UHGV virus genome: UHGV-1368191 | Source of the DNA: a virus | Length of the DNA stretch: 64,000 nt | Reading direction: 5' to 3' (one strand) | In this document: positions 25,519-46,581 of the stretch, piece by piece | Layout: every line of letters begins with the position of its first letter | Position numbering within the stretch: the first letter of the stretch is position 1 | Program-made: the position numbers and the translations under genes | Notes under the pieces: model-generated | What the model was told of the DNA's origin: nothing | Databases searched by the model: none | Seen by the model: only the letters and a program-made list of their open reading frames with translations

Positions 25519-25866
25519 ATGATAACTTTTAAAGAATATTTTAGTGATTGGATAAAGGTTATTAATAAGAAGGGACTGTTTAAAATTATGAGGTGGTTAA
25601 AAATAGTAAATCCTAATAACTTTTGTCCACCTATAGCAGAAAATTCCTACAAGTTTTTTCAAAACAAGAGTTGTAAGTATTTTCCTTGCCACTCTAATGT
25701 AAGTGAAAAGGACTTTAACTGTATGTTTTGCTACTGCCCTCTATATAGTAAGAAAGAGTGTGGGGGTAATTATCGGATATTAGAAAATGGGGTAAAGGAT
25801 TGCTCAGGTTGTGTAATACCTCATGGTAGAAATTCTTGGGGTATAATTCAAGGAAAATTAAAGTAG
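25519..25866 (+). CDS. Cys-rich metal-binding protein whose N-terminus mimics the UDG N-terminus
   Basis: CKYFPCH...FNCMFCYCPLYSKKECGG...KDCSGCVIPH. The first 12 aa (ITFKEYFSDWIKVI) parallel 9201..9914 (TLKEYFGDWLKVF). Confidence 0.35.
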   Translation: MITFKEYFSDWIKVINKKGLFKIMRWLKIVNPNNFCPPIAENSYKFFQNKSCKYFPCHSNVSEKDFNCMFCYCPLYSKKECGGNYRILENGVKDCSGCVIPHGRNSWGIIQGKLK

Positions 25867-25983: not shown

Positions 25984-28900
25984 ATGTTAAGAGTTTATTG
26001 CACAGTAGTTACTCCTGAAATAAATGAAATGGCGGAGAAAATAGGGTTACATCCACAAATAGTTAATAACCTAATTTGTGTATGGCAAACCCTTAATAAT
26101 AAACCAAATCAATATCCTTCAGAGCAAGAACTACAAGAATTAATTAAAAACAGAGAAAGCTATAATGACGCTTTTAAGTATGCTATTCCTTATTATACTA
26201 GAAGCGAAGAAAAAGGCTATGGAGTACACTTTGATGAGAATGATAACCTAGTTATTAATCCTTATCCAAAAGATACGCAGCTTAAGGATGCCTTAAATAC
26301 ACTTCCTTTAGGAGTTCCTGAAGATCTTAAATCTGAAATAACTACGTTTAAAGAGCTTTACATAGTTCAGTTATATGCTGAAAGATTATTACAGACAGAT
26401 CCTAATTATGATATACAGGATAATCCAAATGCATATATAGCAGCTGTGACTGCCTCTATTAGAATGCTTATGGAAGGCAAAAAGAGGCATCTATATGATA
26501 CTACTAGTACTCCTGTTCCTACAAATCCCCAAGTAGAAAGTGAACAGAAGACTACTAAGACTCCTACCATTGAAAAATCTATAGAGTATACACTTCCTGG
26601 ACAGGGAAAACAGACTTATACTATAAAGGGTACACATATTTATAATAAAGATGGTAAAGAGGTCTTTAAAGAAGATAGTGTACACAGAAATAGGATATTT
26701 GCCAATTTAGCGGTTAAAGAAGGAAGAGCAGTAGTGGTAGAACATGGAGATACTAGTTATGTAGTTAATAACAAAGGACATATTATCTCAGTTGCTACAG
26801 GTAAGATGATGCAGTGGGGAGAAGAAAATAGTAATAGAAAAGCTATTCTGGAGGAAGCTAGGAAAAAGTTCTCCTCCAAGATATCTACTCAACAAAGTCA
26901 AAAAACTGTAACTTCTACTTTAGATACTAGGACTATATCTAACAAGACAGCCTCTTTTGGAGTTACTATATCAGAAAACATAATGGGTAATTATTCTGAA
27001 TGGCTTAAAGATAACCCAAATGGTATAGTAGCTTACAGGGTGGACAAGGAACATTTTAATACACCACAGCTTGTTCAAAGAGGTATTATAGGTAATCCAT
27101 TTAATTGGCAAAAGTATGGTGAGGGGAAATCCCTTCAGATGTTCTATGATTGGTTAACCACAGGTAATAATTTTGGGGAGGAAAGTGCTGCTGAGGAATA
27201 TAGAAAGGCTATTATTAATAAAATACTAAGTTCTCCAGTGGGTACTCCTATTCTATACTACAAAGAGAAGTACCAGCCTAGTCACGCCACTATGATTGGG
27301 TATTTAATTAACCATAAAGATCTACTTAATACTGGGATTGTTTCCAGTACCGAAATCACTACTTCTAAAGGAACTGATTATCCCTCTAGGACTAGAGAAA
27401 ATGCTGATTGGTCTGATATAACTATGGCTTTATTTACTGTAAGGTCTAATGGAGAAACTTTAACAGCTCAGGCTGCTGGTTCAAAAGACAGAAAACAAAT
27501 TGGAAACAGAACTATAAGAAATACCAAGGATAAGTATATAGAAGCTGAACTTAGCGATGATTTAAATAACCAAGCTACAATTATTGCTAATAATCTTGAA
27601 AAACAAATAAAAGAGAAAGGTCTTCCTACCAAGGGAATAAAGCTTAATATAGCTGGTAACGGTATCTATTCTTTTAGTGAAGGAGTATCACAAGAATATC
27701 TTAATGATTTAGTTTCTAGTGTTATTCAGATTCTTCAACAAAAGGGTATTACTATATCTAAGATAAGAAGTGGAGGACAGACTGGTGTAGATGAGGCTGG
27801 TATTATAGCTGCCCAAAGATTGGGTATTCCTAATGAAGTACATACTACTGCTGATTTTAAATTTAGAGGCAGAGATGGACAAGATATAAGAGGAGAAGAG
27901 AGATTTAAGGCAAGATTTATAAATCAACAAAGCACTGAAGGTGATAACAATAGAAGAGATATCCAGATAAAAGGGGAAAACATTTCTAGTAAGGGTTCAA
28001 CTTTTGCTAAAATGTTGACTAATCCTGGGAATGATCTTACAGTAGTCTATAAAGGCAAGACATTTAGGAATGCTGAACATGCTTATCAAACATGGAAATC
28101 AGGTGAATTTGATGAAGCTGCTTTTAATAGTACCGCTTTTAAACCTGTAGGCAAAAAGCCTGTAAATAAGTCCTCAAATTTTCAAACTATGGTAGAGATA
28201 CTCACTGCCAAGTTAGAGCAACATCCTGAATTGATTCAGGGCATCAATGACAGAAGGGGCATTGAGTATCTAAATAGGTCATGGCATGAAGTTACTGGTG
28301 ATGAATACTGGGAAAAACAAGGTAACTTTATGAAGGCTCTTATCCAAGCTTATAATAGAGTTAATTCTGACCAAAATACACAACAGGAAGAGGGAACTCC
28401 TGAAGACCTTCCTGAAATAGGTATTCCTGAAGCACTTGCAAGCCAGGTACAGGTAAATAAGGAAAGTCCAAGAGCTATTCTTTCAAGGCAAATGAGTCCT
28501 CAAGAAATAACTAGGAGGGAGGATATGATAGCCAGGGATTTCTCTGATATTATTAATGATGCCCTAAGTGACATGCAAGAAGGTCTTAGAAATGATATAG
28601 AGAATGAAAAAGACCCACTAAGAAGGCTGCAATTATCCCAGAAATTAAATGCACTGGAAGATCCTGTCAAAGGTAGAAGAGCCGCTATAACAGAGCTTGG
28701 AATCGAGGAAATCTTGAATAGAATGAAAGAAGAATATCAAGAATGGATTGACATGGACAGCTCTGAGATAGACTCTTATCTAGGAAAAGGGAAAGCTGAC
28801 TATGTAAAACAAGCTTATCAAAAAGTTCTTGATAATTTTGATCTCCTGTTTGATGAGGCAAGCTCTATGATAGAACAGAAAGAGCACTTAAGAATAACGA

Positions 28901-31900
28901 GAGGAGATACTAAAGAAGTACAGAATACAGAAGACCAAGAACAAGTTTTAGAGGAGGAACTTGGTGATGATGATAGTGGTAACAGAGTAAGTGGGAATGA
29001 AGGGTATACATTCAAAATTAGATTTGTGGATCCTTTTACTTCTATTAGGGCTGAAACTAGGAAAGTCCTTAGTGACATAAAACAGATTGATACAGAAGGG
29101 AATGTAGCCACTGATGATTTAGGTAGAACTATTTATGTTAGGGAAGACTTTGCTCACTCAGCACTGCTGGCTTCCCTTAATTGGATGGATAACCCTAATG
29201 ATTTCAGTGTTAAGAATGCAGATGGTACTTATAGCTTACCCGCATTGGAAAATGCCGCTATGATATATCCTTGGATTAATCAGGTAATAGAGGAATTAGA
29301 GGCTGATCCAAACCTGATAAGTGTCTTCTATAATGATTTCAGAAAAGACTATATATCTTATTGGATGCAAAGAGATGGAAAAGTATTCCCTATGAATTCT
29401 CCTATAGACTATGAAGGAACTTTTAGGGGAATACAACGTAATTATGAGAGTGGCTCTCCACAGGATGATGACTCTATTTTTGATGTTAACCTGAAAATCA
29501 GTAAAGCTAATATAAGGAAAGCCAGAACCCTACTTACTAATGTAAGAAAGAGCCTTAGTAAAGCTGTGTATAGTGAGGATATGGAAACTATAGTTCCTTC
29601 TATACAAAAACTTCTCAATATAATTGGATTTAGCTCTACTAACCTGAATTTGACCCAATTAAAGGATATAAGTAATGTTGGGTTAGCGAACACAATCCTT
29701 GATAGTATAGCTAGAGTACTTGATAACAGTGATACTCTTCAAGAAGGACAACACTATGTTGATACTGTTAGAGACCCTCTTAATATAATAGCTAAATTAG
29801 TAGGCAAAGTTACTGAACTGGATGCTCAAGTAACATTTAGGCAAGGTAAGAACTCATATCCTTCATATGCTGTTCCAAATTATATAGAAACTGTGTTTAA
29901 AAAGCTCCTTAAAAAGGATGATGACCAGAGGAATGAGTATTTACAAAATGAATTTGGAAAGTATGCCTGGTTCAAGAATAAAAACGGGGAATGGAATAAT
30001 GAATGGCTTAGGCTTATAGAAGAGGATCCCAATGTGAGAGACATGGTAACCCTGGTTAATATGTTCAATATGGAAGGAGTTGACTATGAAAACTGGTCAC
30101 CTAGTCTTATTACTACAGGGTTCATGAATATGTATTTTGCTATTGATGAGAATCCAGACTTGGATACCCAATATGGATATTATAACTTCCCCATATTCTC
30201 TGATACAAAGATGGCCACTTTTGTCAAATTCATTAAATATACTGGTGACTATAGAAGTAAATTAATCCCATTATATAGAAAACTAGTTAATCAAGAATTA
30301 AAGAGAATAAGACTGGTAGAGGATAGGGCTAAAAAGGGTATTCCTCCAATAAGTAATTTTGATAAAAGAGGAAAAAGATTCTGTTTTCTTCCTGAACTTA
30401 ATACTCTTAAATTAGATTTTGAGGGTAAAGAAATGACTCTCCTTGATATAGTGAGAGAGTTAAATAGGAGGGGTAATGTAAAGAGTATTGATGCCTACAT
30501 TGATAGTGCTATAAACTGGACTATAGATAAACTGGCTGATGACTTTATCTCTAATCATAAAGAGGTAGTAAGTGATGAGAGTCTTGATAAAATAAAAAAG
30601 GCTACTGGAGTAAAGAGTGATGAGGCTGCTGTTGACAAGATTAGGGAATATGTATGGAATCAAATATTCGCTACTTCACAAATGGTTCAAATGGTAACTA
30701 CTGACTTAGCCTATTATGCGAGTGATACTGATTTTCAAAAGAGATTTAAGGAGGTATATGCAGCTGGAACTAAGTTGAATACTAACAGTAAATATGGAAG
30801 AAAGACAGAAAGAACTGTCTATATCAGGGACAATATAGTAACTTCTCCTACTTATATCCCTCTTAAGGAGATGTTTACTAAAGCTTATAAAGAGGAAAGA
30901 ATAACCAAGATGGATTTGGATTCTATTCTTTATAAGTTCAGAAACATAAATAGTGTAGATGGACAAGCTTATAGAAGTTTAAGTTCTTATAGATCTATAC
31001 TGGATATGCTAGGAAGGTGGACTCCTAAGATGGAGGAAGCTTTTGATAGATTAAATAAAGGCAATTGGGATATTAGTGACTTTGATATAATATGGCAGAC
31101 TATTAAACCTTTTGTCTATGGCCAAGTTGAGACTCCTGATGGGTTAGGGGGACTACTAAGAACCCCTCATCAAAACAAGAACTCAGAGTTTCTACTATTA
31201 GCTACCTATCAAGTCCTAGGAACAGTATTGAATAACTCTCCACAATTAAGAGGACTTAATAAGTTCATGGAAACGAATAATATTGATGTAGTCCAATTTG
31301 AATCTGCTGTGAAAGTAGGTTGTAGTGGAGTTATAGACATTAATGTAAGTCCTTCAAAAATTAAAAAGGCATCTGAAGACAGATTTATAGAGGTTAATGG
31401 AGAGAAATATGATGTTCCTGATATCAGTGGGTTGAACATCAGTAAAGCTTTTGACCAGATAAAGGAGTACTTTGATAATAGACTGGAAAGAGGCAGTATT
31501 ACACAGCAGGAGTATAATAATATCATTGATTACCTTAAGCCAACAGAAACTGAGGTATTTAATACCTTAGTTGAGAATACAAGAAAGAAGATTAATGATA
31601 CTGATGTTCTTACTAAGGATAATTACAACAAGACTACAGTGCATGAAATAAGCTATGATGATTACATGATAGCCCAGCCTACTCCAGAGCATCTGTTTGA
31701 TGTTGAATCTATAATAGGTTCTCAGTTCAGGAACCTTATATACTCAGATCTCCCTGAAGATATAGAAATTAATCTTGGAGATATCACTATTAAGGGAAGG
31801 GACAATGTAAAGAGATATTATTTCTCTCTTATGGTTGAGAACCTCTTGGATTCATATAAAGAGGTCAATGAGGTTTTTTCAAGCATAGAAACTCTTCAGA

Positions 31901-34900
31901 ACAGGCTACTTTCTATTATTAAAGGCAACCCTAAATATAATAGGGATTTGCTTAATGCCCTGGAAATAGTTGAAGTTAATGGAAGAAAGGTATTCAATGT
32001 TCCCTTTAATGATAAAATAACTTCTACTAAACTAGAGGAGCTACTTACCTCTATATTCAAGAATGGAATAGCTAAGCAATACATTAAGGGTGCTTCCTGT
32101 ATATTGGTATCTAATTTTGGATTTACCAATGAGCTAGAGGTAGTAAGAAGGAGAGATGGTAGTATTGAAGCTGTAGAGTGTTATTTACCTGCATATAGTA
32201 GAAAGTTCTATGAGCCATTTTTAACAGAAGTGAAAAATAAAAAAGGTGTAACTATAGGATATAAAATAGACTATAATAAGTTAAAAGGTGCTGATAAGAA
32301 ACTTCTTGATTTTGTAGGATACAGAATACCTACTGAGGCTAAATACAGTATGATTCCCTTAAGAATAAAGGGATTTCTTCCTCAACAAAATGGTAGTGCT
32401 ATAATGCTCCCTTCAGAGATTACTACTCTCAGTGGTTGTGACTTTGATGTTGACAAGCTGTTTATGATGCTTCCTGAGTTTAAAAGAGAGCAAATATATG
32501 ATGTAGACAGAGCTTGGAGAGACTTCTATAATGATCCTAGTAATAGTGATATTGTTAATGAAATTAATAAGAATATCACAGAGGGAGCTAAGAGAAAGAA
32601 TATGTCTGAAAGAGACTTTCTACAGCTTGTTTATGATAATGGCTATAAGAAGTATGATCTTTCAGAAACAGCTCAAGAGAGATTTAGTGACTGGTTTAAA
32701 GGAAGAAAGAAGAACTACTTTGTCGAGGAGAAATTTGAGGTAATTAATTATGACCATAGCAAAGAACCAAAAGATAACAGTAGGGAACAGAGAAATAATG
32801 AGATAATAAATATCGCTTTTCAAATCCTTACTAATAAAATGGTGGGAGAGGACTCACAAAGTCCTGGTAACTTTGATGTACTTAAACATGATGCTAGAGT
32901 CAGGGAAATCACCAGTAATATAAATTATGTTCACGAGTACATGAGAAGAAATAGAATCAAGAACTATGATGATTTTATATATGAGGTTCTTAATGACTCC
33001 TTGGAGAATCTTACTGAATTTCTTAAGGAAGTAAAGGAAGAAAGAAATTCTCTTACTGTGGATACATTTATCTATTATCACAACCAAAATATGGTGGGTA
33101 AAGTATTAGTTGGAATCTATGCTAATAATACCACTATGCAAGCTAAATTCCAGGGAACTGGTCTAGCATTAAAAGATGGATTTGAGTTCACTATAGATGG
33201 AAGGGTAATAAAGAGCTTATCTGATATTTACACAACTGAGAATGGTGCTAAGGTTAAGATATCAAAGAATTGTCAACAATTCTCAGCTGCCTCAGTTGAT
33301 AATGTAAAGGACCCAGTTTTAGCTTTCTTAATGCAGAATAAGAACACCGCCAATACAGCTTGTTTTATGCTAAGAGCTGGAATGAGTATCCCTGAAATAG
33401 GAGCCTTCTTTAATATCCCCATTGTAAAACAATGTATAGAGGAAACAGGAGGACTTAGGGAGTTAAGTTCCTATATTTCCAATGTAGAAACATCTTTGGC
33501 TGAACTATTATCCATGAGAGAATATAAGGTTAAGCCTATAAATTCTACTACTTTAGTAGACATAATGCTCACCACACTGGAGTCTAGAGGTATAACACCT
33601 GAAACTCCTATAGAAAGACAAATCCAAATAATAGAAAAAGAACTTCAATTAGCAAAGTTATTATTGAGAATATCTAAATATGGAGATGCTCTTGGGGAGA
33701 CAGTACAGGCTTATAGAGCTGATTCTCCTAAGGCTGCTATAGGAAGAAGTGTTGCCATAGCTAAGATACAAACACTAAATATAGATAGGCTTATAAGGAA
33801 GTCAAGACTCTCTGATTTTCCTCTTACTGGAATAGAGAATATAGTAAGGAATAATTATATTACCCCTGATATGACTATAGACCAAATGAGGGAAGCTCTT
33901 ATGAATTCCAAGATGCCCATGCTTCAAGCATTCTACTCTTTAGGAATAGAATTTGGTGTTAAAAAACTGGCTGATTATTTTGCTACAGCTGGAGATTATG
34001 CTAATCAAGTAATTGATTTCGTGAATACTCTTTCTATAAGACCTTTAAGAGAAAGAGATGTTCAAACCATCTATAATGCTCTTATACAATTTGCTCTTAG
34101 TGATACAGAGTTATTTGGGGAGAGCAGTGAGATGTCTTTAGAGGAAAAGAGAAATTATTACTTATCAGTATTTCCTAAGGAATTTACTAGGATTGTAAGT
34201 GAAAACCCTGATATAGCTAAGATACCTTTTATACAAAAAATCAGTAATAGTCCCTCTGGAATTATAATGAGGGATTCCTCAAGAAATAGTCACCAATTGA
34301 TAGATTTATTAATGAATAGTGCTGATACATTACTATATATGGATAGTAATCCTGTAGCATGGAAATTGGCATTTCATCTATTCAATTATGCCTATTTCAA
34401 AGAAGGACTTAATTATGGTCCCAGTAGCTTCTCTCAATATTTCAGTACTGTTTGGAAAACATCATTCCCAGAGTATATAGATACCCTTAGGGAGCTTAAT
34501 ACTTCAATGGGAGTCTCTGATAAATGGAGCAGGTTTATAACACAATACTATGCCAACAATCCAGTGATGGCTCCTACTATCGTTGTACCAAGAGATTATT
34601 ACTCAGAAGATAGGAAGATAGTAAGGATACCTAGTAAAGAAGTTTCCAATAGAAATTTAGTAGTTCCAACACCTGTTGAGTTCTTTTATGATCCCAATGA
34701 ACTTACTGTGTATAGACTTAACACTGAATCTATGGAAAATGAAATTCTACAATATGATAGAATATCAACAACACCTGGTAACCTTTATGATGCTAATAAG
34801 GAGTCTAATGATATGGTAGCTGAAAATGAGAAATATCAAAAATCAGCTGAAAAGATGATACAAGCTGAGAAAGAAAGAAGAAATCCTGGTGTTCAAGGAG

Positions 34901-35112
34901 GACAAATTACAGGAAATAGTAATCCAGCTATAAACAATAATGAGGATATATCTTTATTAGGAGTTGATACTGGAACTATTGATGCTATATTGGGAGAACT
35001 GGATGCTGCCGTTGAGGCATCTGAAGAGTATAGTCCTGAAGAGGGATTAAAAGAAGAAGGGTTAAATCCATGTAAAAAAGGTAATGGTGACAATGTAATA
35101 AAGGAGTTATAA
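25984..35112 (+). CDS. giant virion-packaged RNA polymerase-like protein (crAss-like gp66 type) with N-terminal NADAR + SLOG accessory module
   Basis: About 3040 aa. SGCDFDVDKLFMM sits about aa 2160, matching the DFDxD catalytic aspartate motif of the phi14:2 virion RNAP as I recall it. The ORF-track TTG start at 25960 lies inside the promoter motif, so the first ATG at 25984 is preferred. The N-terminal about 800 aa are extra relative to the about 2200-aa phi14:2 protein and contain a NADAR domain (KGKTFRNAEHAYQTWKSGEF...KLEQHPELIQGI...GDEYW) and a GGQTGVD SLOG motif. Confidence 0.55.
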   Translation: MLRVYCTVVTPEINEMAEKIGLHPQIVNNLICVWQTLNNKPNQYPSEQELQELIKNRESYNDAFKYAIPYYTRSEEKGYGVHFDENDNLVINPYPKDTQLKDALNTLPLGVPEDLKSEITTFKELYIVQLYAERLLQTDPNYDIQDNPNAYIAAVTASIRMLMEGKKRHLYDTTSTPVPTNPQVESEQKTTKTPTIEKSIEYTLPGQGKQTYTIKGTHIYNKDGKEVFKEDSVHRNRIFANLAVKEGRAVVVEHGDTSYVVNNKGHIISVATGKMMQWGEENSNRKAILEEARKKFSSKISTQQSQKTVTSTLDTRTISNKTASFGVTISENIMGNYSEWLKDNPNGIVAYRVDKEHFNTPQLVQRGIIGNPFNWQKYGEGKSLQMFYDWLTTGNNFGEESAAEEYRKAIINKILSSPVGTPILYYKEKYQPSHATMIGYLINHKDLLNTGIVSSTEITTSKGTDYPSRTRENADWSDITMALFTVRSNGETLTAQAAGSKDRKQIGNRTIRNTKDKYIEAELSDDLNNQATIIANNLEKQIKEKGLPTKGIKLNIAGNGIYSFSEGVSQEYLNDLVSSVIQILQQKGITISKIRSGGQTGVDEAGIIAAQRLGIPNEVHTTADFKFRGRDGQDIRGEERFKARFINQQSTEGDNNRRDIQIKGENISSKGSTFAKMLTNPGNDLTVVYKGKTFRNAEHAYQTWKSGEFDEAAFNSTAFKPVGKKPVNKSSNFQTMVEILTAKLEQHPELIQGINDRRGIEYLNRSWHEVTGDEYWEKQGNFMKALIQAYNRVNSDQNTQQEEGTPEDLPEIGIPEALASQVQVNKESPRAILSRQMSPQEITRREDMIARDFSDIINDALSDMQEGLRNDIENEKDPLRRLQLSQKLNALEDPVKGRRAAITELGIEEILNRMKEEYQEWIDMDSSEIDSYLGKGKADYVKQAYQKVLDNFDLLFDEASSMIEQKEHLRITRGDTKEVQNTEDQEQVLEEELGDDDSGNRVSGNEGYTFKIRFVDPFTSIRAETRKVLSDIKQIDTEGNVATDDLGRTIYVREDFAHSALLASLNWMDNPNDFSVKNADGTYSLPALENAAMIYPWINQVIEELEADPNLISVFYNDFRKDYISYWMQRDGKVFPMNSPIDYEGTFRGIQRNYESGSPQDDDSIFDVNLKISKANIRKARTLLTNVRKSLSKAVYSEDMETIVPSIQKLLNIIGFSSTNLNLTQLKDISNVGLANTILDSIARVLDNSDTLQEGQHYVDTVRDPLNIIAKLVGKVTELDAQVTFRQGKNSYPSYAVPNYIETVFKKLLKKDDDQRNEYLQNEFGKYAWFKNKNGEWNNEWLRLIEEDPNVRDMVTLVNMFNMEGVDYENWSPSLITTGFMNMYFAIDENPDLDTQYGYYNFPIFSDTKMATFVKFIKYTGDYRSKLIPLYRKLVNQELKRIRLVEDRAKKGIPPISNFDKRGKRFCFLPELNTLKLDFEGKEMTLLDIVRELNRRGNVKSIDAYIDSAINWTIDKLADDFISNHKEVVSDESLDKIKKATGVKSDEAAVDKIREYVWNQIFATSQMVQMVTTDLAYYASDTDFQKRFKEVYAAGTKLNTNSKYGRKTERTVYIRDNIVTSPTYIPLKEMFTKAYKEERITKMDLDSILYKFRNINSVDGQAYRSLSSYRSILDMLGRWTPKMEEAFDRLNKGNWDISDFDIIWQTIKPFVYGQVETPDGLGGLLRTPHQNKNSEFLLLATYQVLGTVLNNSPQLRGLNKFMETNNIDVVQFESAVKVGCSGVIDINVSPSKIKKASEDRFIEVNGEKYDVPDISGLNISKAFDQIKEYFDNRLERGSITQQEYNNIIDYLKPTETEVFNTLVENTRKKINDTDVLTKDNYNKTTVHEISYDDYMIAQPTPEHLFDVESIIGSQFRNLIYSDLPEDIEINLGDITIKGRDNVKRYYFSLMVENLLDSYKEVNEVFSSIETLQNRLLSIIKGNPKYNRDLLNALEIVEVNGRKVFNVPFNDKITSTKLEELLTSIFKNGIAKQYIKGASCILVSNFGFTNELEVVRRRDGSIEAVECYLPAYSRKFYEPFLTEVKNKKGVTIGYKIDYNKLKGADKKLLDFVGYRIPTEAKYSMIPLRIKGFLPQQNGSAIMLPSEITTLSGCDFDVDKLFMMLPEFKREQIYDVDRAWRDFYNDPSNSDIVNEINKNITEGAKRKNMSERDFLQLVYDNGYKKYDLSETAQERFSDWFKGRKKNYFVEEKFEVINYDHSKEPKDNSREQRNNEIINIAFQILTNKMVGEDSQSPGNFDVLKHDARVREITSNINYVHEYMRRNRIKNYDDFIYEVLNDSLENLTEFLKEVKEERNSLTVDTFIYYHNQNMVGKVLVGIYANNTTMQAKFQGTGLALKDGFEFTIDGRVIKSLSDIYTTENGAKVKISKNCQQFSAASVDNVKDPVLAFLMQNKNTANTACFMLRAGMSIPEIGAFFNIPIVKQCIEETGGLRELSSYISNVETSLAELLSMREYKVKPINSTTLVDIMLTTLESRGITPETPIERQIQIIEKELQLAKLLLRISKYGDALGETVQAYRADSPKAAIGRSVAIAKIQTLNIDRLIRKSRLSDFPLTGIENIVRNNYITPDMTIDQMREALMNSKMPMLQAFYSLGIEFGVKKLADYFATAGDYANQVIDFVNTLSIRPLRERDVQTIYNALIQFALSDTELFGESSEMSLEEKRNYYLSVFPKEFTRIVSENPDIAKIPFIQKISNSPSGIIMRDSSRNSHQLIDLLMNSADTLLYMDSNPVAWKLAFHLFNYAYFKEGLNYGPSSFSQYFSTVWKTSFPEYIDTLRELNTSMGVSDKWSRFITQYYANNPVMAPTIVVPRDYYSEDRKIVRIPSKEVSNRNLVVPTPVEFFYDPNELTVYRLNTESMENEILQYDRISTTPGNLYDANKESNDMVAENEKYQKSAEKMIQAEKERRNPGVQGGQITGNSNPAINNNEDISLLGVDTGTIDAILGELDAAVEASEEYSPEEGLKEEGLNPCKKGNGDNVIKEL

Positions 35113-38100: not shown

Positions 38101-39073
38101 GAGAAAGAGTGCATTGGCTAGGATATTTTCATCTGAAATAGCATATATTGGACAGGGAGCTGGAGACCATTGGCTATACATGAGAACAGCTATAGCTATG
38201 GCTTTAAGAGAGAGAGTGAATGTTCCTGGGAAGGGAGAAATGTCATTATGGGAAGCTCTCCAGATAGAAGATACATTTGATGGCAATGATAAGATAAAAG
38301 AAATGAAACTCCCTGAGGGAACTACTGGAGCTGATGGTAAACCATTTGATATTGGTAAATTTGGAAGAAAAATAGCTCATGTTAACCAGTCATTATTTGG
38401 TATTTATAATACTGAGGATAGAAATGCTGCACAGAGAGTTATTATGGGTAGGCTATTACTGCAATATAGGAATTGGATGAAACCCCAATTCAATAGAAGA
38501 TTTCAAAGAGGTCAATTTAACCTTGATACACAGAGCTGGGAAGAAGGTTATTATAGAACCTCTTATAGAATCCTAAGGGGGTTAATAAGGGGACAATATC
38601 AGCTAGGAGCTGTGTGGCAAGAACTTAAACCTGAAGAAAGGGCTAATGTTAAAAGAGCTATAACTGAAATGCTTCAATTATGTATAGTAGTACTCTTGGC
38701 TGAATTTATTAAGTGGCCTGATGATAAGGATAGACCTTGGGCAATTAAATTAGCTGAATATACATCTAGGAGACTTGAACATGAATTGGGAACTCTAGCA
38801 CCTTCCCCAATGATGCTTCAAGAGATGCTTAAGACTGTTAAATCCCCAGCTGCTGTTATAACACAAGTGCAAAACCTTATCAATTTATTCTCAAGTCTTA
38901 CTGACCCAAGAGATTGGAATGATGAAATAGAATCAGGTAAATATAAAGGAATGAGTACTTTAGAGAAGAATCTACTTAAATCTGGGCTACCAGGCTTTGC
39001 GCAGTTTAGGCAACTAGATAGATTGATATATGACATGGATAACTCCATTAATTATTATGCTAGACCATATTAA
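35114..39073 (+). CDS. giant virion protein (1319 aa), probably co-ejected partner of the virion RNAP
   Basis: Immediately follows the RNAP gene (the stop at 35110-35112 is separated from the ATG at 35114 by a single nucleotide). No catalytic motif recognised. Confidence 0.35.
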   Translation: MANACVFTPKKGIKTFQKLKNEFGYDEAWKIYGIAMNPKFQNDYKDSLSFDAEGVPFFDSLIQNNYIMKVAGSNIRKYLGKNLPKRDDSIENFNLTLEDAKTFNDRSPYNKNFVAVVGYDDEGRIAIQLLGRTEENEKKFANQYATYKLNMRLAEILKSLGVSVGLLQEIEQSSGRVGVTDFSVAKLLATDSISMIRVANNMEGAKALSEEFAHLIIGAMRGNPLIQRNINTLANEDSLREILGDDYQDVYDFYEGDMELMAEEALGHILQEKLLESVTSNDIQGRLINQVQRKFKRIKESEIVDAIHEAESSMSTIAKGILGGNLTLSKKDIINSQRDVQFNALSEQVERNIKILKDAIAVESKRYKIIRGNEDSKKYAESIVNALERNMNTDTALGVLTYAREALSSLKVASNTLSTLNTMSPEDKFKLLIGIKSTIQSYSQFIDNLNDLALDDKNDADYTKDFVVTDHKGDKEVVNMKSTLTELNSLYKLIGRDWLRIALPSFAEYLKPVLGEKITIEMGSRKGVSITIEELLKSSESDISYLDRWLDSMGNSSDILLRAFDKIYKNAMDKARLQSIKDFRRIQALRMEAESYGITTFDWMFERDREGNFTGNYVSEVNSYQYYQDRDRFEEELSEKYGKNPKGDNLKAKLAERERWHEEHSDLTILGTRIPKESVYRNEDFYKLSDKQQLIRKKFLEIKTQMDKQYPSTRVSELKAIQLRKDGVQRFIDSGKDPSTIFSNIKEHLADEFLERTDDDTIFGGRTGLTDFAGKEFMTLPVLYTNRLENPNELSTDIFGSLMAYTAASNNYREMDRIIDPLETGRTLIKENRKVKTTRGGMNLVEKFKALGKNFQNEAIESGGSYIEDRLDDFFASQIYHKYLEDSGIWEVFGKKINKNKVVSALMKGSSMAQLGFNYLTNLANVTTGVAMQNIEAAAGEFFNAKELAKADSIYVKLIPGNIAEFNSRTKTNRLSLFNELFNIRQDFDDVSHHVMRKSALARIFSSEIAYIGQGAGDHWLYMRTAIAMALRERVNVPGKGEMSLWEALQIEDTFDGNDKIKEMKLPEGTTGADGKPFDIGKFGRKIAHVNQSLFGIYNTEDRNAAQRVIMGRLLLQYRNWMKPQFNRRFQRGQFNLDTQSWEEGYYRTSYRILRGLIRGQYQLGAVWQELKPEERANVKRAITEMLQLCIVVLLAEFIKWPDDKDRPWAIKLAEYTSRRLEHELGTLAPSPMMLQEMLKTVKSPAAVITQVQNLINLFSSLTDPRDWNDEIESGKYKGMSTLEKNLLKSGLPGFAQFRQLDRLIYDMDNSINYYARPY

Positions 39074-39126: not shown

Positions 39127-42100
39127 CTAGTACATACAATGGAATAAGATTTCTTTTTCAAGAATAGTCATATTACTGTATTCTTTTGGAGATATCTTTC
39201 TTTCAGATAAATAATCTTTCTGTTCTTTAGATAGTTTATTATAAGAAAGTTTAATCTCATGATATTGTTTTATCTCTATGGTGTCTATAGCTTCTGTGTT
39301 AACATCTCTGTCAATATATTTCCCTTTTAATATATCAGTATAAACTCTGTCAAGATAGAACCAATTACTATTAAAATGATTTAATAGTGCTTTTAATCTA
39401 GACCATAGATTCTTCAGTCTGCCTACAAAAGTCTCTTCATTCTGCATATATCTTCTAAAGTCTTCAGCCATTCTTTCTTCTAGCTCTATAGGACTCAAAT
39501 TACCCCATTGCCTTTTAGCTGATTTAAAGGCATTCTCAAGCTCTTGGTCAGTCATTAGAGTATTGAATACAAAATGGAAGGCCTCATGATAAGCAGTTCC
39601 TCTAGCCGCGTTTTTATAGAGTGTTATAGCTCCATCTTTAAATTGTCCCCAAGCTTTTCCTCCAGGAATTTTTATTAGAGTACCTACTATTCTGATTCTA
39701 TCTTCTTCACTTAATTGAGGAAGTAACTCCCCTATCACCTCTAATTCCCTACCTATTAGAGATTCACTCTCTCCAATGTACTTTCTATATCTAATATCAT
39801 TATCAGTTCTAGAGAATGTTCCAATATTATCTGTAGCTGATTTAATTTGGTTAGGATTAAATACTACTAATTCTACACCATTCTTACCTCTTATATCATT
39901 CATGTTAAAAGCACTTCTAAAAACATTCATATTAGAAAATCCTATAGCACCATCATTGTTAGAAGTACTATGTTTATCTATGCCCTTTCTTGTGTAAATA
40001 TCTCCAGATTTATATCCAGAAGGTTTATCAACAATAACAGGATTTTTAATATTAAGATATACAGGTATATCGTGAGATTGTGAAAGTTTTTCTACAATTT
40101 TTCCTACTATAGTAGAATTATCTCTCCAAGGTTTAAACCACAATCCTTCTCCTCTTTTAGATTTATTTAAATCAAAAGTACTAAAATCAGCTCTTGTACT
40201 ATGATAAACAACTAAAGGTTCACCATTTTCATCTACTACTTTTGATACATTTCTATCTCCACTGTTTATATCGTCTGCTTGTGGTAATTTATCGTTAAGT
40301 ATTCTATAAGTAGTGTGATTCCAATGTCCTACTTTAGGTTTTTCAGATACCACCTCAGCAATTCCATCTTTAACTAAAGATTTCCATAAAGCATCTTCGG
40401 CATCAGAATTAGATCTATCAGAATATAAAATTTTACCTTCTGATTTGGCAATATTAGCAAGAGCTAAATGAGCTTTTTTTCCATATCCTTTTCCTCTATA
40501 TTCTTCTTCTATTTCTGTGGCAGCTCCTATAGATCCTCCCATTCTAATTTTATCTTTAGTTTCAATAACAGGAATTTCTCCTATATATTTATCACCTAAA
40601 AATATAACTCTTTTACCTCCATCAGGAGCCATATCAGCATCAAATAATGCTTCACTTACAGTAACTCCTTGGTATGTAGCAGATGTAATACTATTAGGAA
40701 TATCTTGACTTTCTCTAAATCTAGAAGAACGGGCAACTCTCTCCCAATTACCAAACCATTTCTTAAATGCTTTAGTTCTCACTTGAGCATATTGTTTAGG
40801 TGTAAGGTTTGATGGTCTACTATTAGGAGCTAGGAGTCTACCTTGAAAATCTCTAGGGGCTTTATCTAGAATAGATTGTTCTTCCTTAGTTAGATTAGAA
40901 GTGCTAACTTCTCTATTCTTAGGTCTAAGTTGTTCAGCAACAAGGTTATTCAGTTCCTCATCAGACATATTAGGGATAATCTTAGCATCTAAGTACTGAG
41001 CAAGGGTTTTCAGTATAGGAGTTTTTAGTTTACTGAGACCTTGTATATTATCATCATTTAGTCTGTCTATTCTTGCTTGCCATTTTTTAGGCTTGAAAAC
41101 AGCTTTCTTTTTTAAGGTTTCCCTAATAGAAGCTACATCTTGCCTAGGCTCTGAAGTATCAGGTTTATTTTCCTCAGCTTGAGTACTTTGTTCAGAAGGT
41201 TGAGGAGTCGCTTTCTTAAAGTAGTTATCTACATCTATAATAGGTAATGCTATATTAGGTACTTTATTTACTCCTATAACAGTATCATCATTTCCATAAA
41301 CAATGGTAAAGGGAACTATAGCTACACCTTCAGTCTTTTTACCAAACCTATCATATAGTAGCTTAGCATAGGAAGATACTTGATAGGTATGGTACTCTTT
41401 AGTGGACATTGTTTGCCCCCAAGCAGAATTCACTCCTTCATAGCGAAATCCAGCAAAAGGACCCACAGAAGTCTTTACATCATAAATATAGTAGTTGCCC
41501 TTATTATCTATGAACAGTAAATCAACTTCTCCCGCTATTCTTCTCCCATCCAGATATTTTTGATAGAGAACTATATTATTGGCAAATACTGACCACTTAT
41601 GATCATTTAACCACTTATCTAAGGACTTAAGATACTCTATGATACTATTATAGGCCTTATCTGACATAAAATCAGGCTTAGTGGTCTTTCCTGTATTAAA
41701 GAAGTCTCTTACTATAGTATCAACAGCACTCCCAGTTCTTAGTGCTCTTTGGCTGTTAGCAGTACCAGTATTATTTGAATTAGAAGGAAGTACATTATGC
41801 ACCCTTTGGTACTTATGATACTTGCCATCACTCTCTTTTATATAGTAATAGTTACTATCAGTTCTATTCCTATCTATATTTGATTGATCTGGTATTATAG
41901 TACTTCTTACAAAGTTTCTCTCCCTACTGGCTTTTACCTCATCTTCAGCTTCCTTTGGAGCATCTTGGATAGATTTAGCTCCTTCCTTTTTCCCTTTTAT
42001 TATGGGGTCTATGGTATAGAAATCATTAACTGTATGCAGGGTCCACTTTTCAAGATTGGTTGTAGCTAATTCACCTATAAGACTATTATAATCTTGCCCA

Positions 42101-45100
42101 TTGAATTGAGTGTTGATATACTTTCTGGATATCTGGAAAGGTATATTAAGTCCTCCTAAAGCCTTAACTATATCAGTGGATATATCCTCATTCTGTATAA
42201 CAGTTCCTCTATAAATAGTAGACCAAGCAGTATCTGTAGAGGAGACTTTTACCCTGAAGTTTACCTGATAATTATTGCCTACCTCTTTTACATCCAAAAA
42301 GATATCACTAACAGCAAGTAGATCCTTAAGTCCTCTTTTCCACTCTTTCTGTGCCTCTTCAGTAAGTAGACTTTTAGGGTCATTCAATTTTTGTAGATGG
42401 GCTACTATTATCTTATATAGACTAGAAGAGGCTACATCACTACTGAAAGTAGGCATAGTAAAGGGAACAGGTACCCACCTTCTTCTTGGGTCAGAAGTTT
42501 CTATAAGTAAATAAGGCTGCCCTGCCAATGCACTCTCAGGACTTACTATTGATTGGTCATCTTCTGTTCTTCCTTGAGACCTTCTTCTTCCAGGGGTCAT
42601 TATCATCTTGGCATCAGGGGAGGAAGTCAATGCTATTCCAAGCTTGAAAGGTACTCCATGAGCTATTTCATTAAGAGTACTCCTTTCATTCTTAGCAGAG
42701 TATAAAGGCCTTCCTATATAGGGTCTACTGATAGTTGACTCAGCATTGGGATAAATAACTAAATCTCCATCCACTTTTTCCCTATTCTCATTATAGTAAG
42801 TGATAACTTCATTATAAAATTCAGCCAACCCTGTGTAGCTCCCAAATGTAGCTGTGTCACTAGGATTAGGTAAGTCAAATAGGATATTACCATCCTCATT
42901 TACCACTAAGAGAACAGGTACTCTCTCTTTTGAGTTTGCATAAATCTTATCAGAAAGACTTTTTGAGATAGCGAATCTTACCTTTTGTCCTACTTTTATT
43001 TCATTATTTCTTATTCTTGTGAACACTCCAGAAGTTCTAAGAAAATCATAGATAGTCTTGAGAATAGCTTGCTTCTTTTTATCCTTTACTTGCTCATAAT
43101 AAGGGTCATTATTCTCTGTATTCCTATGAATAGGATATTCAGTAGTACCACTTTTCCAATAACTCTTATCCTGCATTTGAGTATCACTTATTTGAGTGTT
43201 TTGGCTAGCGGCTACTAAATCAATGTTTGTGGTATTTGGGGTAGGAGTTTCCACTTCTTCTCCAGTATCCTTTTCTTCTTTAGTATTACCCTCCTTATTA
43301 ACTGTGGGAGGAGCTTCAACTGGGTCTTTGCTTTTAGTACTATCCAGAGTTCTTACTACTTCTGGAGCACCATTTCCCTTTTCAGGTAGGTTCTTCAGTC
43401 TCTCTAGATCCTCTACTACTTCCTTAGTTATCTCAGATAGTACATTTTTGATTTCATCAAGTCTTTGTTGTCTTGATTCATTATATGCTTTTTTTGCCTT
43501 CTCTATATCCTCAGGAGTACTATTTGGATCATTCATTACACTAAGTAATTGTTGTTCATCAACTGTAGGAAGAAGAGAATCTGGGTCATTAAATGCTTCA
43601 GTATCAAGGTCAATTATATCAGAAGCTACTTCAGCAGATGACGTAGCTCTGTCTAGCATTGCATCTATAGAGGAGAGTATATCATCATCAATAACACGCT
43701 CTTTAGCTTTCTCTTTTGCTGTATCTCTAGTTTTCTTGATATCTCTAGCTGTGTTTACCTTCTGTTTTCTATCTATTTCTTTTTTCCTTTCAGGATCAAG
43801 ATTTTCTTGTTCAGCATCAGTTAAATCTTCACTTGTAAAGTCAAATTCACTAGCATCTAAGTCCACTTTTCCATTATCAGAATCCTCAACAAGTTCCTGT
43901 ACTGATTTATTATCTACATTAGAATTTTCAACCTCTTGTTGGGACTCCTGTTCAGCTTTTTTCCTAGCCTCATCTACTCTCCCAGGCTCTTTCATATATT
44001 TAGCGAAAGTAATCCCAAATTCTCGTGAATCATTAAGAAGACTAATAGCATCTAGAATATCATTCTCAAATCCTAGGTTACGGTTAATAAGTTCATCAAC
44101 GTTTTTCTTAGTGGATTCCTTATCATGCCCTAAAGCTATATCCAGTATTACATCTCTCCAGTGTTCATTAGTATTACTTGTTTCTATAGTTACAGTATTA
44201 TCCCCATTGGGTGTAATAGAAACTCCATTGCCTAATGTCTTTTGTAGGGATTCAACTGTTTCTCCCTTATCAAGAGTAATAGTAAAAGAGAGAGGAAGGA
44301 TAGCTTTATCCATTATATTATTAGCTCTTTTTCTAGCAGCTTTTCCTAAATAGTGTAAATAAGCTAGATTACCCTCCTGGTCACTGGTAAGTTTACCTCC
44401 AGAGACACTATTTACATATTGTACTGACTTAAGATATTCATTAACTCTATCCTTCAGTTTCTTTCCATTGGATTCCAGTTCTTTCCTGATTTCATCATTA
44501 CTTTTGACCCTATTCCCATGGCTATCAACAAATAATCCTATTTTCTTTTCCTCCCCGACAACATTATTAAACTCTCCCATAATTTCACCTATCTGGTTAA
44601 GAGCTTCAGTGGCTTCAGCTTCTTTACCTTCTTCAATAGCCTTCTCAGCTATCTGTTGCAAGGAAGCTACTCTTCTTTTTAAAGTATTTTTTTGATTTTC
44701 AGTATCCTGTTCCTTAGTAATAGTAACAGTATTCCTACTAACAATGTTGTCTATATCCTCATCAGTTAAGTTTTGAGTAGAGGCATCTATAAAAGTAAGA
44801 AAGTCATCAACAGTCCCTGATCTGACAGCTAAATCAAGATCTTGTACAAATTGCTTCTCCTCAGCGTCTTTATACTGTTTTATATCATCATTTGCCACTC
44901 CCTCATCCATATCAGTTTGAAAATATGAATGAGCTACAGCACTGTCAAATCTATTCCAAAATTTAGGATCTTTATACCTAGTATTTAGGGCTTCATTGAG
45001 CTTAGTGGCAGCATCAATCTTTTCTTTCATTTCCCTAAGGTTTTGGAAAGAACCTCCTTCCCAAGAAAAGTATCTTCTTGGGTCATATTTTCTTTTGGTT

Positions 45101-46581
45101 TTATCTTGGTTAAATGCCTTAGTGGGCATAGGCATTCCTATAGCCCCTGTAAGACCTCCTACAAAAAATTGTTCCCATTGATCATAGTCTCCCCAAGAAT
45201 CAAGAAATCCTTTTCCAATAGCTGTCAATGCAGACATAGTTTCCTGCTGAGAACCTGGATTCATTCTAGCTCTCCAGTAGTCATTGGGGTCTTCTCTATC
45301 ATAAGCATATCCTGATAAAGAAGATGCCCATTGCTGGTTCATCTCTTCAGAACCCTCAGATAGTATAGGTTTAAAGAATGCTTTGGTTTTTTGCCATTTT
45401 GCATTCTTCAAGGTGTGTTCCAACTGAGTTTTCAATTCACCAGTTCTGGCCTCTTGGAACATCTTCCTGGCTTTATTTTTTATATCACTTATACCATTAA
45501 GGAGGTCAGCTCCACCTGACTTAGCAGAAGCTTCAGCCATTTTTCTGGCATTACTGAAAGATTTAGAGAAACCTTTACCAAGAGTAAAGAAGTTACCAAG
45601 TGTAAGAATGGGCATATTAAGTGCCATGTCTATATTACCAGCACTTCTGGCATCTTGAAGAATCTGTTGTTTACCTGCTATTCTTTTGGCTTCTATATCA
45701 TTGAGAGTGCTTTGGTATGTCATAATATCACCAGTCTCTCTATATCTAGCATAAGCTTCTTCTCTCTGCCTATCAAGTGTATCATCAAGCCTTTGATTAT
45801 TAAGGTCAACTAGAGATTCCATAGTTTGCTTAGCTTCTATAGCTCCTTCTCCAGCAGCACTAAACATGGAACCAAGTATAGCTGTACCTATTTTGGAGGT
45901 TTTAGTGGCATTAGAAACAAGGTTTAATGCCTTTGCAGCCAGTCCCAATCCACCAGTGAAAATACTACCACTGGCAGCAGCTCCAAGCATAAATCCTACA
46001 TTCTTGATAACATCATCTCCCCAGAAGGAGGCAGAAGTTAAATTAGTCAAACTAAGCCACGGGGCATTCTGTTGTTCTTTACTTTGGTAAATCTTAAAGT
46101 TGTCCTCCATGAAATCCTCTACCTCACTGAGTCCTCTTGTCAGCTCATTATCCCATAGTCCTGACCATCTGCCTTCATCAATAGCTGTATAGATACCTAC
46201 AGGAATATTAGCTATTCCACTGACTATAGTGGTAGCAGCTGTACCAAGCATTTTTGCTAGGGCATTACCCAATGCGTCTAAAGTGGACTGATTTTGGTAT
46301 CTGCCCTCATTCATGGCATCATAATCATCCAGTCCAGTATTTAAGGTATCATATTTTGAAGTTCCCCAACTGGCTAATGGGTCATCTAATTCTCTATGTT
46401 GTGGGGAAAATAATGCAGCATCTGTGGCATTTTCCCAACCAACATTTCCAGTAGCCTCTGAAGCTCTTACTGCCCTACTATATTGTAGTGCCCTTTGTAT
46501 ATCTTGTTCTTCTTTAGCTGATATTCCCTTTAATCCTTTAAGGCCTACAGGACCTGTTTTAGTTATATCTTGTTCTGCCAT
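39127..46581 (-). CDS. giant multi-domain virion/ejection protein (2484 aa) with zincin HExxH, GNAT-like and PD-(D/E)xK-like motifs
   Basis: Last gene of the minus-strand structural operon. Gly/Ala-rich hydrophobic segment GAAASGSIFTGGLGLAAKAL. Long acidic coiled-coil middle region. GEVDLLFIDNKGNYYIYDVKTS (PD-(D/E)xK-like). EEEYRGKGYGKKAHLALANIAK (GNAT motif-A-like). TAYHEAFHFVF (HExxH) near the C-terminus. Confidence 0.45.
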   Translation of the reverse strand: MAEQDITKTGPVGLKGLKGISAKEEQDIQRALQYSRAVRASEATGNVGWENATDAALFSPQHRELDDPLASWGTSKYDTLNTGLDDYDAMNEGRYQNQSTLDALGNALAKMLGTAATTIVSGIANIPVGIYTAIDEGRWSGLWDNELTRGLSEVEDFMEDNFKIYQSKEQQNAPWLSLTNLTSASFWGDDVIKNVGFMLGAAASGSIFTGGLGLAAKALNLVSNATKTSKIGTAILGSMFSAAGEGAIEAKQTMESLVDLNNQRLDDTLDRQREEAYARYRETGDIMTYQSTLNDIEAKRIAGKQQILQDARSAGNIDMALNMPILTLGNFFTLGKGFSKSFSNARKMAEASAKSGGADLLNGISDIKNKARKMFQEARTGELKTQLEHTLKNAKWQKTKAFFKPILSEGSEEMNQQWASSLSGYAYDREDPNDYWRARMNPGSQQETMSALTAIGKGFLDSWGDYDQWEQFFVGGLTGAIGMPMPTKAFNQDKTKRKYDPRRYFSWEGGSFQNLREMKEKIDAATKLNEALNTRYKDPKFWNRFDSAVAHSYFQTDMDEGVANDDIKQYKDAEEKQFVQDLDLAVRSGTVDDFLTFIDASTQNLTDEDIDNIVSRNTVTITKEQDTENQKNTLKRRVASLQQIAEKAIEEGKEAEATEALNQIGEIMGEFNNVVGEEKKIGLFVDSHGNRVKSNDEIRKELESNGKKLKDRVNEYLKSVQYVNSVSGGKLTSDQEGNLAYLHYLGKAARKRANNIMDKAILPLSFTITLDKGETVESLQKTLGNGVSITPNGDNTVTIETSNTNEHWRDVILDIALGHDKESTKKNVDELINRNLGFENDILDAISLLNDSREFGITFAKYMKEPGRVDEARKKAEQESQQEVENSNVDNKSVQELVEDSDNGKVDLDASEFDFTSEDLTDAEQENLDPERKKEIDRKQKVNTARDIKKTRDTAKEKAKERVIDDDILSSIDAMLDRATSSAEVASDIIDLDTEAFNDPDSLLPTVDEQQLLSVMNDPNSTPEDIEKAKKAYNESRQQRLDEIKNVLSEITKEVVEDLERLKNLPEKGNGAPEVVRTLDSTKSKDPVEAPPTVNKEGNTKEEKDTGEEVETPTPNTTNIDLVAASQNTQISDTQMQDKSYWKSGTTEYPIHRNTENNDPYYEQVKDKKKQAILKTIYDFLRTSGVFTRIRNNEIKVGQKVRFAISKSLSDKIYANSKERVPVLLVVNEDGNILFDLPNPSDTATFGSYTGLAEFYNEVITYYNENREKVDGDLVIYPNAESTISRPYIGRPLYSAKNERSTLNEIAHGVPFKLGIALTSSPDAKMIMTPGRRRSQGRTEDDQSIVSPESALAGQPYLLIETSDPRRRWVPVPFTMPTFSSDVASSSLYKIIVAHLQKLNDPKSLLTEEAQKEWKRGLKDLLAVSDIFLDVKEVGNNYQVNFRVKVSSTDTAWSTIYRGTVIQNEDISTDIVKALGGLNIPFQISRKYINTQFNGQDYNSLIGELATTNLEKWTLHTVNDFYTIDPIIKGKKEGAKSIQDAPKEAEDEVKASRERNFVRSTIIPDQSNIDRNRTDSNYYYIKESDGKYHKYQRVHNVLPSNSNNTGTANSQRALRTGSAVDTIVRDFFNTGKTTKPDFMSDKAYNSIIEYLKSLDKWLNDHKWSVFANNIVLYQKYLDGRRIAGEVDLLFIDNKGNYYIYDVKTSVGPFAGFRYEGVNSAWGQTMSTKEYHTYQVSSYAKLLYDRFGKKTEGVAIVPFTIVYGNDDTVIGVNKVPNIALPIIDVDNYFKKATPQPSEQSTQAEENKPDTSEPRQDVASIRETLKKKAVFKPKKWQARIDRLNDDNIQGLSKLKTPILKTLAQYLDAKIIPNMSDEELNNLVAEQLRPKNREVSTSNLTKEEQSILDKAPRDFQGRLLAPNSRPSNLTPKQYAQVRTKAFKKWFGNWERVARSSRFRESQDIPNSITSATYQGVTVSEALFDADMAPDGGKRVIFLGDKYIGEIPVIETKDKIRMGGSIGAATEIEEEYRGKGYGKKAHLALANIAKSEGKILYSDRSNSDAEDALWKSLVKDGIAEVVSEKPKVGHWNHTTYRILNDKLPQADDINSGDRNVSKVVDENGEPLVVYHSTRADFSTFDLNKSKRGEGLWFKPWRDNSTIVGKIVEKLSQSHDIPVYLNIKNPVIVDKPSGYKSGDIYTRKGIDKHSTSNNDGAIGFSNMNVFRSAFNMNDIRGKNGVELVVFNPNQIKSATDNIGTFSRTDNDIRYRKYIGESESLIGRELEVIGELLPQLSEEDRIRIVGTLIKIPGGKAWGQFKDGAITLYKNAARGTAYHEAFHFVFNTLMTDQELENAFKSAKRQWGNLSPIELEERMAEDFRRYMQNEETFVGRLKNLWSRLKALLNHFNSNWFYLDRVYTDILKGKYIDRDVNTEAIDTIEIKQYHEIKLSYNKLSKEQKDYLSERKISPKEYSNMTILEKEILFHCMY

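Follow-up and report, generated by a model that had tools for sequence, protein, structure and literature searches.

A crAss-type virion RNA polymerase with an inserted set of putative NADAR, SLOG and DUF4326-like domains in a crAss-like phage

Among the phages of the human gut the Crassvirales predominate and, to our knowledge, hardly anything has been learned of the means by which they escape the immunity of Bacteroidales. We studied a stretch of 64,000 nucleotides from the virus genome UHGV-1368191 (hereafter the window) and, within it, a giant open reading frame (ORF) whose product of 3042 amino acids (aa) is orthologous to gp50 of phage ΦcrAss001, a virion RNA-polymerase cargo protein. 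Between a short conserved leader and the polymerase body this protein holds an insertion of ~750 aa with three identifiable domains: a DUF4326-like domain without the family cysteines (module A), a cpYpsA-type SLOG domain (module B) and a NADAR domain (module C). Their positions are given in Table 1.

The giant ORF and its polymerase body

The giant ORF was unbroken up to position 35112 and presented two possible starts, TTG at 25960 and ATG at 25984; independent gene calls on public assemblies chose the ATG, which gives the 3042-aa product. An identical copy of this protein was present on nine contigs of 50-200 kb, one of them of 96,222 bp, and therefore a split gene or an assembly chimera is unlikely; the chimera was ruled out by these long contigs together with a second giant protein that has the same order of domains (P0198, see below). 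A recent horizontal acquisition visible in base composition was also rejected, the guanine-plus-cytosine content being flat (0.33-0.39) over the giant ORF.

The C-terminal ~2200 aa were homologous to a solved polymerase, gp66 of phage phi14:2 (PDB 6vr4; E 2.4e-25), residues 2014-2304 of the window protein pairing with residues 1227-1524 of the 6vr4 chain, and the body aligned lengthwise with ΦcrAss001 gp50 and its relatives at ~34% identity. From these alignments, the C-terminal part is a crAss-type virion RNA polymerase. A preliminary description of this DNA, made from the letters alone, had proposed a fusion to such an enzyme, and the 6vr4 match, the DFDVD motif and the orthology with gp50 bear it out. 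The ~800 additional aa that it noted relative to crAss-like RNA polymerases agree with the offset of the 6vr4 alignment, and all the motifs that it quoted, DFDVD included, were found where it had placed them.

Searches with the nucleotide sequence of the giant ORF (megablast against phage genomes) gave no match, and an NCBIfam scan of its segments gave zero matches on every segment. A weak Pfam match to PBECR1 was seen at window positions 28690-28821 (aa ~903-946; E 0.047, 14.6 bits against a cut-off of 27.6) and may be due to chance. PBECR1 is a predicted RNase of polyvalent proteins, and its family is typical of those that contain virion polymerases.

The leader and the insertion site

The N-terminal leader was common, by sequence comparison, to ΦcrAss001 gp50, PhiCrAssBcn1_13, cr126_1 and the fragment P0030; further evidence for it came from P0020 and P0019. 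The polymerase body of gp50 starts at its aa 67 and aligns with the window protein from aa ~816 on. Since leader and body both align to gp50, the accessory domains are located in an internal slot and not at the extreme N-terminus. The preliminary description had placed the module at the N-terminus of the polymerase: the fusion stands, and the extreme position does not, being preceded by the ~60 aa shared with gp50. As read from the aligned proteins, leader and body of the gp50-like polymerase flank a slot for payload.

The first part of the insertion (aa ~61-199) had no family match in Pfam or NCBIfam. It is followed by a small domain, module Z, found again in P0198, P0189, P0213, P0172 and P0296 at 43-60% identity, with further instances in P0163 and P0157.

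Table 1 Coordinates of the giant ORF, its domains and motifs, and the ADP-ribosyltransferase domain of a neighbouring ORF
Feature	Residues (aa)	Window position	Strand	Basis or remark
Giant ORF	3042 aa	25984..35112	+	ΦcrAss001 gp50 orthologue, virion RNA-polymerase cargo protein
Conserved N-terminal leader	1 to ~60	25984..26163	+	Sequence comparison
Unassigned region	~61-199	26164..26580	+	
Module Z, small domain	~200-317	26581..26934	+	Recurs beside module A in other giant proteins
Module A, Cys-less DUF4326-like	318-455	26935..27348	+	hhalign; carries IGNPF ... YY ... PSHAT
Module B, cpYpsA-type SLOG	456-650	27349..27933	+	Pfam, PHROG, homologues, re-permutation
SGGQTGVD nucleotide-binding loop motif	596-603	27769..27792	+	Lies in the part that homologues align to Pfam profile positions 1-31
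Module C, NADAR, phage (His) type	655-812	27946..28419	+	Family matches, AlphaFold2 (AF2) fold, hhalign
NADAR motif NAEHAYQTWK	696-705	28069..28098	+	E698, K705 = E43, K50 of P. nicotianae NADAR
NADAR motif SWHEVTGDEYWE	766-777	28279..28314	+	H768, D773, W776 = E125, D130, W133 of P. nicotianae NADAR
RNA-polymerase body	813-3042	28420..35109	+	Homologous to ΦcrAss001 gp50 (from gp50 aa 67) and phi14:2 gp66
DFDVD catalytic motif, two-barrel polymerase	2153-2157	32440..32454	+	Motif search, 6vr4 homology
ART-PolyVal (PF18760)	2117-2256 of the 2484-aa ORF 39130..46581	39814..40233	-	Pfam

The NADAR domain

The profile of the module C family was aligned with six Pfam-positive NADARs plus YbiA, and hhalign gave a probability of 95.5% (E 1.5e-8, 99 columns), compared with 0.1-0.2% for reversed and unrelated controls. 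This run replaced an earlier one with a poorer template alignment, in which the probability was 71% over 35 columns. The Pfam model NADAR (PF08719) weakly matched 13 of the 15 family members (best 5.5e-5), one of which was named DUF1768 by its source. The AF2 model of module C (pLDDT 88, pTM 0.82) had E. coli YbiA (2b3w) as its top Foldseek match in the PDB (E 2.8e-4, probability 1.0, TM-score 0.53), followed by a Phytophthora NADAR (8bau, probability 0.94), with all others at or below 0.13. When the family profile was run against PDB sequences nothing was found at E <= 10.

The five module C residues listed in Table 1 were spaced identically to the catalytic positions that had been defined structurally in the P. 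nicotianae NADAR (PMC11543638). Histidine at the position of E125 is the hallmark of the phage gp30.3-type NADARs (PMC11125620). Judging from fold, family matches and motifs, module C is a NADAR with a complete phage-type active site, although the direct Pfam match was below threshold. The preliminary description had named substituted catalytic residues as what would speak against its NADAR; the positions are kept, with the phage-typical His variant.

The SLOG domain

The Pfam model cpYpsA (PF12694) scored 32.0 bits on the isolated aa 450-659, above its cut-off of 26.2, and 24.5 bits in a scan of the whole 3042-aa protein. Module B also matched PHROG 10774 (1.4e-17), and more than 100 of its homologues, nearly all of them, had a precomputed PF12694 match. 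The conserved elements of SLOG appear in the order RTRENADWSD (aa 469-478) first and SGGQTGVD second, and a further motif, GRDGQD, lies in the same region (aa 629-634). The native sequence gave two disjoint matches to the Pfam model, of which the reported one placed native residues 7-55 on profile positions 48-96. When the C-terminal 66 residues were moved to the front a single contiguous match to profile positions 1-101 was obtained, and therefore module B is circularly permuted relative to the Pfam model. Standalone relatives of 182-198 aa keep the same order of elements, which is found across the phage subfamily; module B is therefore a complete domain and not two halves.

The DUF4326-like domain

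Module A carries the motifs IIGNPF (aa 368-373) and PSHATM (aa 432-437). The Pfam model DUF4326 (PF14216) matched neither the window module A nor its close relatives, and weakly matched 8 of 42 more distant relatives (best E 0.011). The family profile was compared with a reference set of 12 phage DUF4326 proteins, nine of them Pfam-verified at 52-94 bits: hhalign gave a probability of 79.8% (E 1.4e-5) over 66 columns that extend from GNPF as far as the CH motif, and 0.2-0.3% for the controls. In the alignment the three cysteines of the C-x-C...C-H motif of DUF4326 are replaced by Y, K and S, and the histidine alone is kept. The AF2 model of the domain had a pLDDT of 90. One member of the reference set, T4 NrdA.1 (KJ477684.1, 142687-143013), is annotated as conserved hypothetical and was a clear member of DUF4326 (78.7 bits).

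The family of module A comprised 451 representative clusters at E <= 1e-3, and the search of a 5.8-billion-protein set with its profile returned zero Pfam-annotated relatives. Within the family W, YY and H were invariant, the YY and H (Y108, Y109 and H117) aligning with Y425, Y426 and H434 of the window protein. The GNPF and HAT motifs were almost without variation at their G, N, P, A and T. Relatives of module A were also found fused to Kinase-PolyVal and ART-PolyVal domains.

All three domains had been named in the preliminary description, and the assignments hold, with moderate support for the DUF4326-like one. For SLOG (GGQTGVD) the Pfam cut-off was passed and PHROG 10774 and the homologues agree, and its suspected circular permutation was confirmed by the artificial re-permutation; the label of a Cys-less DUF4326 describes the aligned motif accurately.

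Contents of the slot in related phages

The preliminary description expected the extension to be specific to a lineage, and it was indeed not universal. The slot is empty in ΦcrAss001 gp50; that of cr126_1 (QOR59539.1, annotated only as 'DUF1768 domain-containing protein') contains only a canonical NADAR (53 bits, aa 62-189), and that of PhiCrAssBcn1_13 only a cpYpsA domain (aa ~87-257). In sequence, then, the cassette is accessory, with close relatives that lack it or have a single domain. BLASTP of module C against the cr126_1 NADAR gave no significant pairwise similarity, and therefore they represent different NADAR subtypes.

ΦcrAss001 gp50 and PhiCrAssBcn1_13 were 99.4% identical over 2340 residues, except for a clean cpYpsA insertion of ~196 aa bounded by a repeated AF(E/D)xP junction (AFEAP / AFDTP). 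Among the Bcn isolates the insertion was found only in PhiCrAssBcn1, 2, 3, 20 and 25. As compared here, cultured phages of a single genus, Kehishuvirus, are polymorphic for the presence of this insertion.

A crAss polymerase body was present in 58 of the 138 module A representatives newly listed by the library search, with module A on its N-terminal side in ~21 and on its C-terminal side in ~37. These 58 polymerase giants combine module A with B and/or C (or with a canonical NADAR) in many orders; the Z-A-B-C-polymerase order of the window was matched among the representatives only by P0198. Other arrangements were seen in short contig fragments, with A directly followed by C (P0015) or C followed by B (P0032), and standalone fusions of NADAR and cpYpsA were found in both orders.

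Neighbouring virion genes

The next ORF downstream (35114-39073, 1319 aa) corresponds by gene order to the position of gp49. On the opposite strand Pfam identified the crassvirus muzzle protein (51167-56026), cargo protein 1 (48358-51072) and cargo protein 2 (46587-48362). The surroundings are thus those of a virion module of a crAss-like phage. From its size and its position beside cargo protein 2, we take the 2484-aa ORF as a putative gp47-like cargo protein; its ART-PolyVal domain, a predicted ADP-ribosyltransferase (ART; ADP, adenosine diphosphate), scored 77.7 bits against a cut-off of 31.2 (E 2e-21). A predicted ADP-ribose writer and putative erasers or readers would accordingly belong to one set of cargo proteins.

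Similar ART segments were found in only ~20 phage records, including the crAss-like cr116_1, cr10_1, cr85_1, cr130_1 and cr271_1. In cr10_1 (MT774382.1, 95745-97053) a giant ORF of 4460 aa ends in cpYpsA, and the ART-like segment lies ~350 nucleotides downstream, in a stretch without any ORF of at least 100 aa under translation table 11; recoding of stop codons, or a pseudogene, may account for this. Upstream of the giant gene of the window, a small ORF (25519-25866, positive strand) had a precomputed Pfam zf-like (PF04071) match on an identical public contig.

Proposed function and alternatives

Mass spectrometry detected gp47, gp49 and gp50 of ΦcrAss001 in virions, and the three are viewed as ejected cargo (PMC10172136). 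Since the orthologue is carried in the capsid and considered to leave it before or along with the DNA, the inserted region would be expected to travel likewise, and the cassette would then arrive in the cytoplasm ahead of any phage gene expression. We propose, with confidence that is evenly balanced, that the polymerase carries a three-domain ADP-ribose cassette injected early, whose NADAR strips ADP-ribose from guanine in the phage DNA, alongside the SLOG and DUF4326-like domains. The NADAR would cleave the N-glycosidic bond between ADP-ribose and guanine in the incoming DNA, the lesion of DarT1-type toxins, or in related conjugates, and this de-ADP-ribosylation would keep the template readable for the tethered polymerase. 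The SLOG domain would bind, and possibly cleave, nucleotides derived from ADP-ribose, either the released product or alarm signals derived from host nicotinamide adenine dinucleotide (NAD). The Cys-less DUF4326-like domain would most likely be a module for binding a ribose-phosphate ligand, or an accessory one, rather than a cysteine phosphatase.

Work on other phages is consistent with this proposal. Johannesman et al. showed that ADP-ribose linked to guanine is removed, and DarTG1 overcome, by T4 AdfN and two further NADARs of phages (PMC11257639), and all the phage NADARs assayed so far act on this linkage (PMC11257639; PMC11125620). For fusions of SLOG, NADAR and DUF4326 in DNA viruses, the processing of ADP-ribose derivatives early in infection was predicted (PMC9503650). 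A counter-defence purpose of the cassette is plausible by analogy with these systems, and the enzymes are probably delivered into the host together with the phage DNA, where they would weaken immunity based on ADP-ribose; the candidate substrates are DNA adducts, soluble NAD-derived signals or the products of the phage's own ADP-ribosyltransferase.

Several observations weigh against the proposal. Detection in virions covers the orthologue ΦcrAss001 gp50, and not aa 60-812 of the window protein. The NADAR and SLOG domains of phages were argued to target mostly soluble ADP-ribose derivatives and not DNA adducts (Iyer et al., PMC9503650), and in one study T4 gp30.3 failed to rescue DarT1 toxicity (PMC11125620). 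The ADP-ribosyltransferase of the adjacent cargo gene is an alternative source of substrate. At the level of the domains, the direct match of module C to Pfam NADAR (E 0.023, 15.4 bits) was under the cut-off of 35.1, and a BFVD fold search with module A had DUF4326 proteins as its top matches, none of them significant. In the alignment module A is missing all three family cysteines, and therefore the activity predicted for DUF4326 is not simply transferable to it.

The prediction for soluble targets leads to another reading, which we regard as unlikely: the main targets of the cassette would be soluble molecules derived from NAD, with the polymerase as a mere delivery vehicle, so that host immune signals or toxic metabolites, e.g. 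cyclic ADP-ribose isomers or ADP-ribose phosphates, are degraded or sequestered. This is what was predicted, with a division of labour, for phage combinations of NADAR, SLOG and DUF4326 (Iyer et al. 2022, PMC9503650), and the same authors link YpsA-clade SLOG to the sensing of cyclic ADP-ribose. The modules also occur free-standing and at the C-terminal side of polymerase giants, and therefore closeness to the active site of the polymerase is not a constant feature. However, the phage NADARs assayed all have guanine-linked ADP-ribose in DNA as their substrate (PMC11257639), small-molecule activity has been shown for neither cpYpsA nor DUF4326, and the few copies per virion (~6 polymerase proteins estimated in ΦcrAss001, PMC10172136) would be a small dose against a diffusible signal.

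It is improbable, in our judgment, that the cassette is the eraser or self-protection partner of the ADP-ribosyltransferase that the phage itself would inject, limiting or undoing what this enzyme attaches to phage DNA or to the polymerase, or removing its by-products. The ART-PolyVal match in the same cargo gene block and the closeness of cpYpsA and the ART-like segment in cr10_1 speak for such a pairing, and the writer/eraser combination is the logic of DarT-NADAR operons (PMC11543638). The co-occurrence is nevertheless loose: neither PhiCrAssBcn1, with its cpYpsA, nor cr126_1, with its NADAR, had an ART match, and cr85_1 has the ART, yet its gp50-like protein matched neither module B nor module C. 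In addition, ART-PolyVal is predicted to modify host proteins (PMC5512222), a modification not known to be reversed by NADAR enzymes. Still less probable is that the extra domains have no enzymatic role and serve as structural filler or as an aid to ejection or packaging, or are cleaved off before travel. The lost cysteines of the DUF4326-like domain would fit a non-enzymatic part, and proteolytic processing was proposed for polyvalent proteins (PMC5512222). Against it, conservation across the family extends to the active-site residues of NADAR and the GGQTGxD loop of SLOG, module A keeps invariant residues of its own, and the same domains were recruited repeatedly in different orders, which suggests selection for domain activity.

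Beyond the window protein, we tentatively extend the proposal of an injected anti-immunity cassette: the leader/body junction and the C-terminal end of the Crassvirales polymerase giants may be general payload slots for interchangeable injected anti-immunity enzymes, a generalization for which the chances are somewhat below even. If true, the most abundant human gut phages would have a modular, virion-delivered effector system, with DUF4326-like, SLOG, NADAR, ART and other enzymes swapped in and out, among them the unrecognised Cys-less DUF4326 family (451 representative clusters) with a chemistry or ligand of its own. If the injected polymerase carries exchangeable ADP-ribose erasers and readers, this would suggest ADP-ribosylation or NAD-derived signalling as a major defence axis of gut Bacteroidales, and some of the differences in size among the giant proteins (2400 to >6000 aa) would be accounted for as well. 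The cultured phages ΦcrAss001 and PhiCrAssBcn1, which differ essentially by one cpYpsA cassette, offer a natural experiment, and the large DUF4326-like family and the differently permuted SLOG family, as defined here, are now open to biochemistry.

Comparison with known systems

Polyvalent proteins were defined by Iyer, Burroughs, Anand, de Souza and Aravind in 2017, including N4-like virion polymerases together with ART, lysozyme, PBECR and metallopeptidase domains (PMC5512222). The window protein resembles them in being a giant virion-type protein, encoded among late or virion genes, that joins an early-transcription polymerase to putative host-aimed effector domains: three accessory domains and the polymerase lie in one polypeptide, with the genes for muzzle, cargo 1 and cargo 2 nearby. 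Unlike the N4-like proteins, its polymerase is the crAss-type two-barrel enzyme and not the T7-like N4 module. NADAR, SLOG and DUF4326 are unmentioned in that work, where the leader/body insertion slot is not described either.

The association of DUF4326, SLOG, Macro and NADAR reported by Iyer et al. (2022) was predicted to be deployed early, including by packaging, against NAD/ADP-ribose-based immunity (PMC9503650). The same three families are fused in the window protein, and the same early deployment is proposed. The proteins of that set are typically standalone, and crAss phages and polymerase fusions are unmentioned there; unlike them, the DUF4326-like domain of the window has no cysteines and its SLOG domain is permuted differently from the Pfam model. 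AdfN (T4 gp30.3) shares with module C the histidine at the Glu position of the YbiA family, and E, K, D and W are kept in both. However, AdfN is a small protein made after infection, whereas module C is a domain of a 3042-aa protein presumed to be pre-packaged, and in sequence module C bears little resemblance to the Pfam NADAR and gp30.3 models.

With ΦcrAss001 gp50 and phi14:2 gp66 the window protein has in common the orthologous polymerase body, the DFDxD motif and the gene order; in gp50 the leader is directly followed by the body, whereas ~750 extra residues are found there in the window protein. Close parallels are cr126_1 and PhiCrAssBcn1_13, gp50 orthologues with an accessory domain in the same slot. 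Each of them has one domain, without a DUF4326-like module or the three-domain combination, and the NADAR of cr126_1 belongs to a different, more canonical subtype than module C.

Literature searches pairing crAss-like or Crassvirales with NADAR or DUF1768 found nothing in the library searched. The domain families and the idea of their delivery by the virion were known already; this host protein and the insertion site were undescribed. What is new is that the host protein is a crAss-type polymerase, that its leader/body junction is a clean slot for cassettes, and that the modules are shuffled among dozens of metagenomic crAss polymerase giants. The finding thus extends known kinds, i.e., polyvalent virion proteins and phage ADP-ribose-processing fusions, rather than establishing a new category, and its value lies in the crAss-specific payload slot, the metagenomic breadth and a natural experiment that stands ready among the cultured Kehishuvirus isolates.

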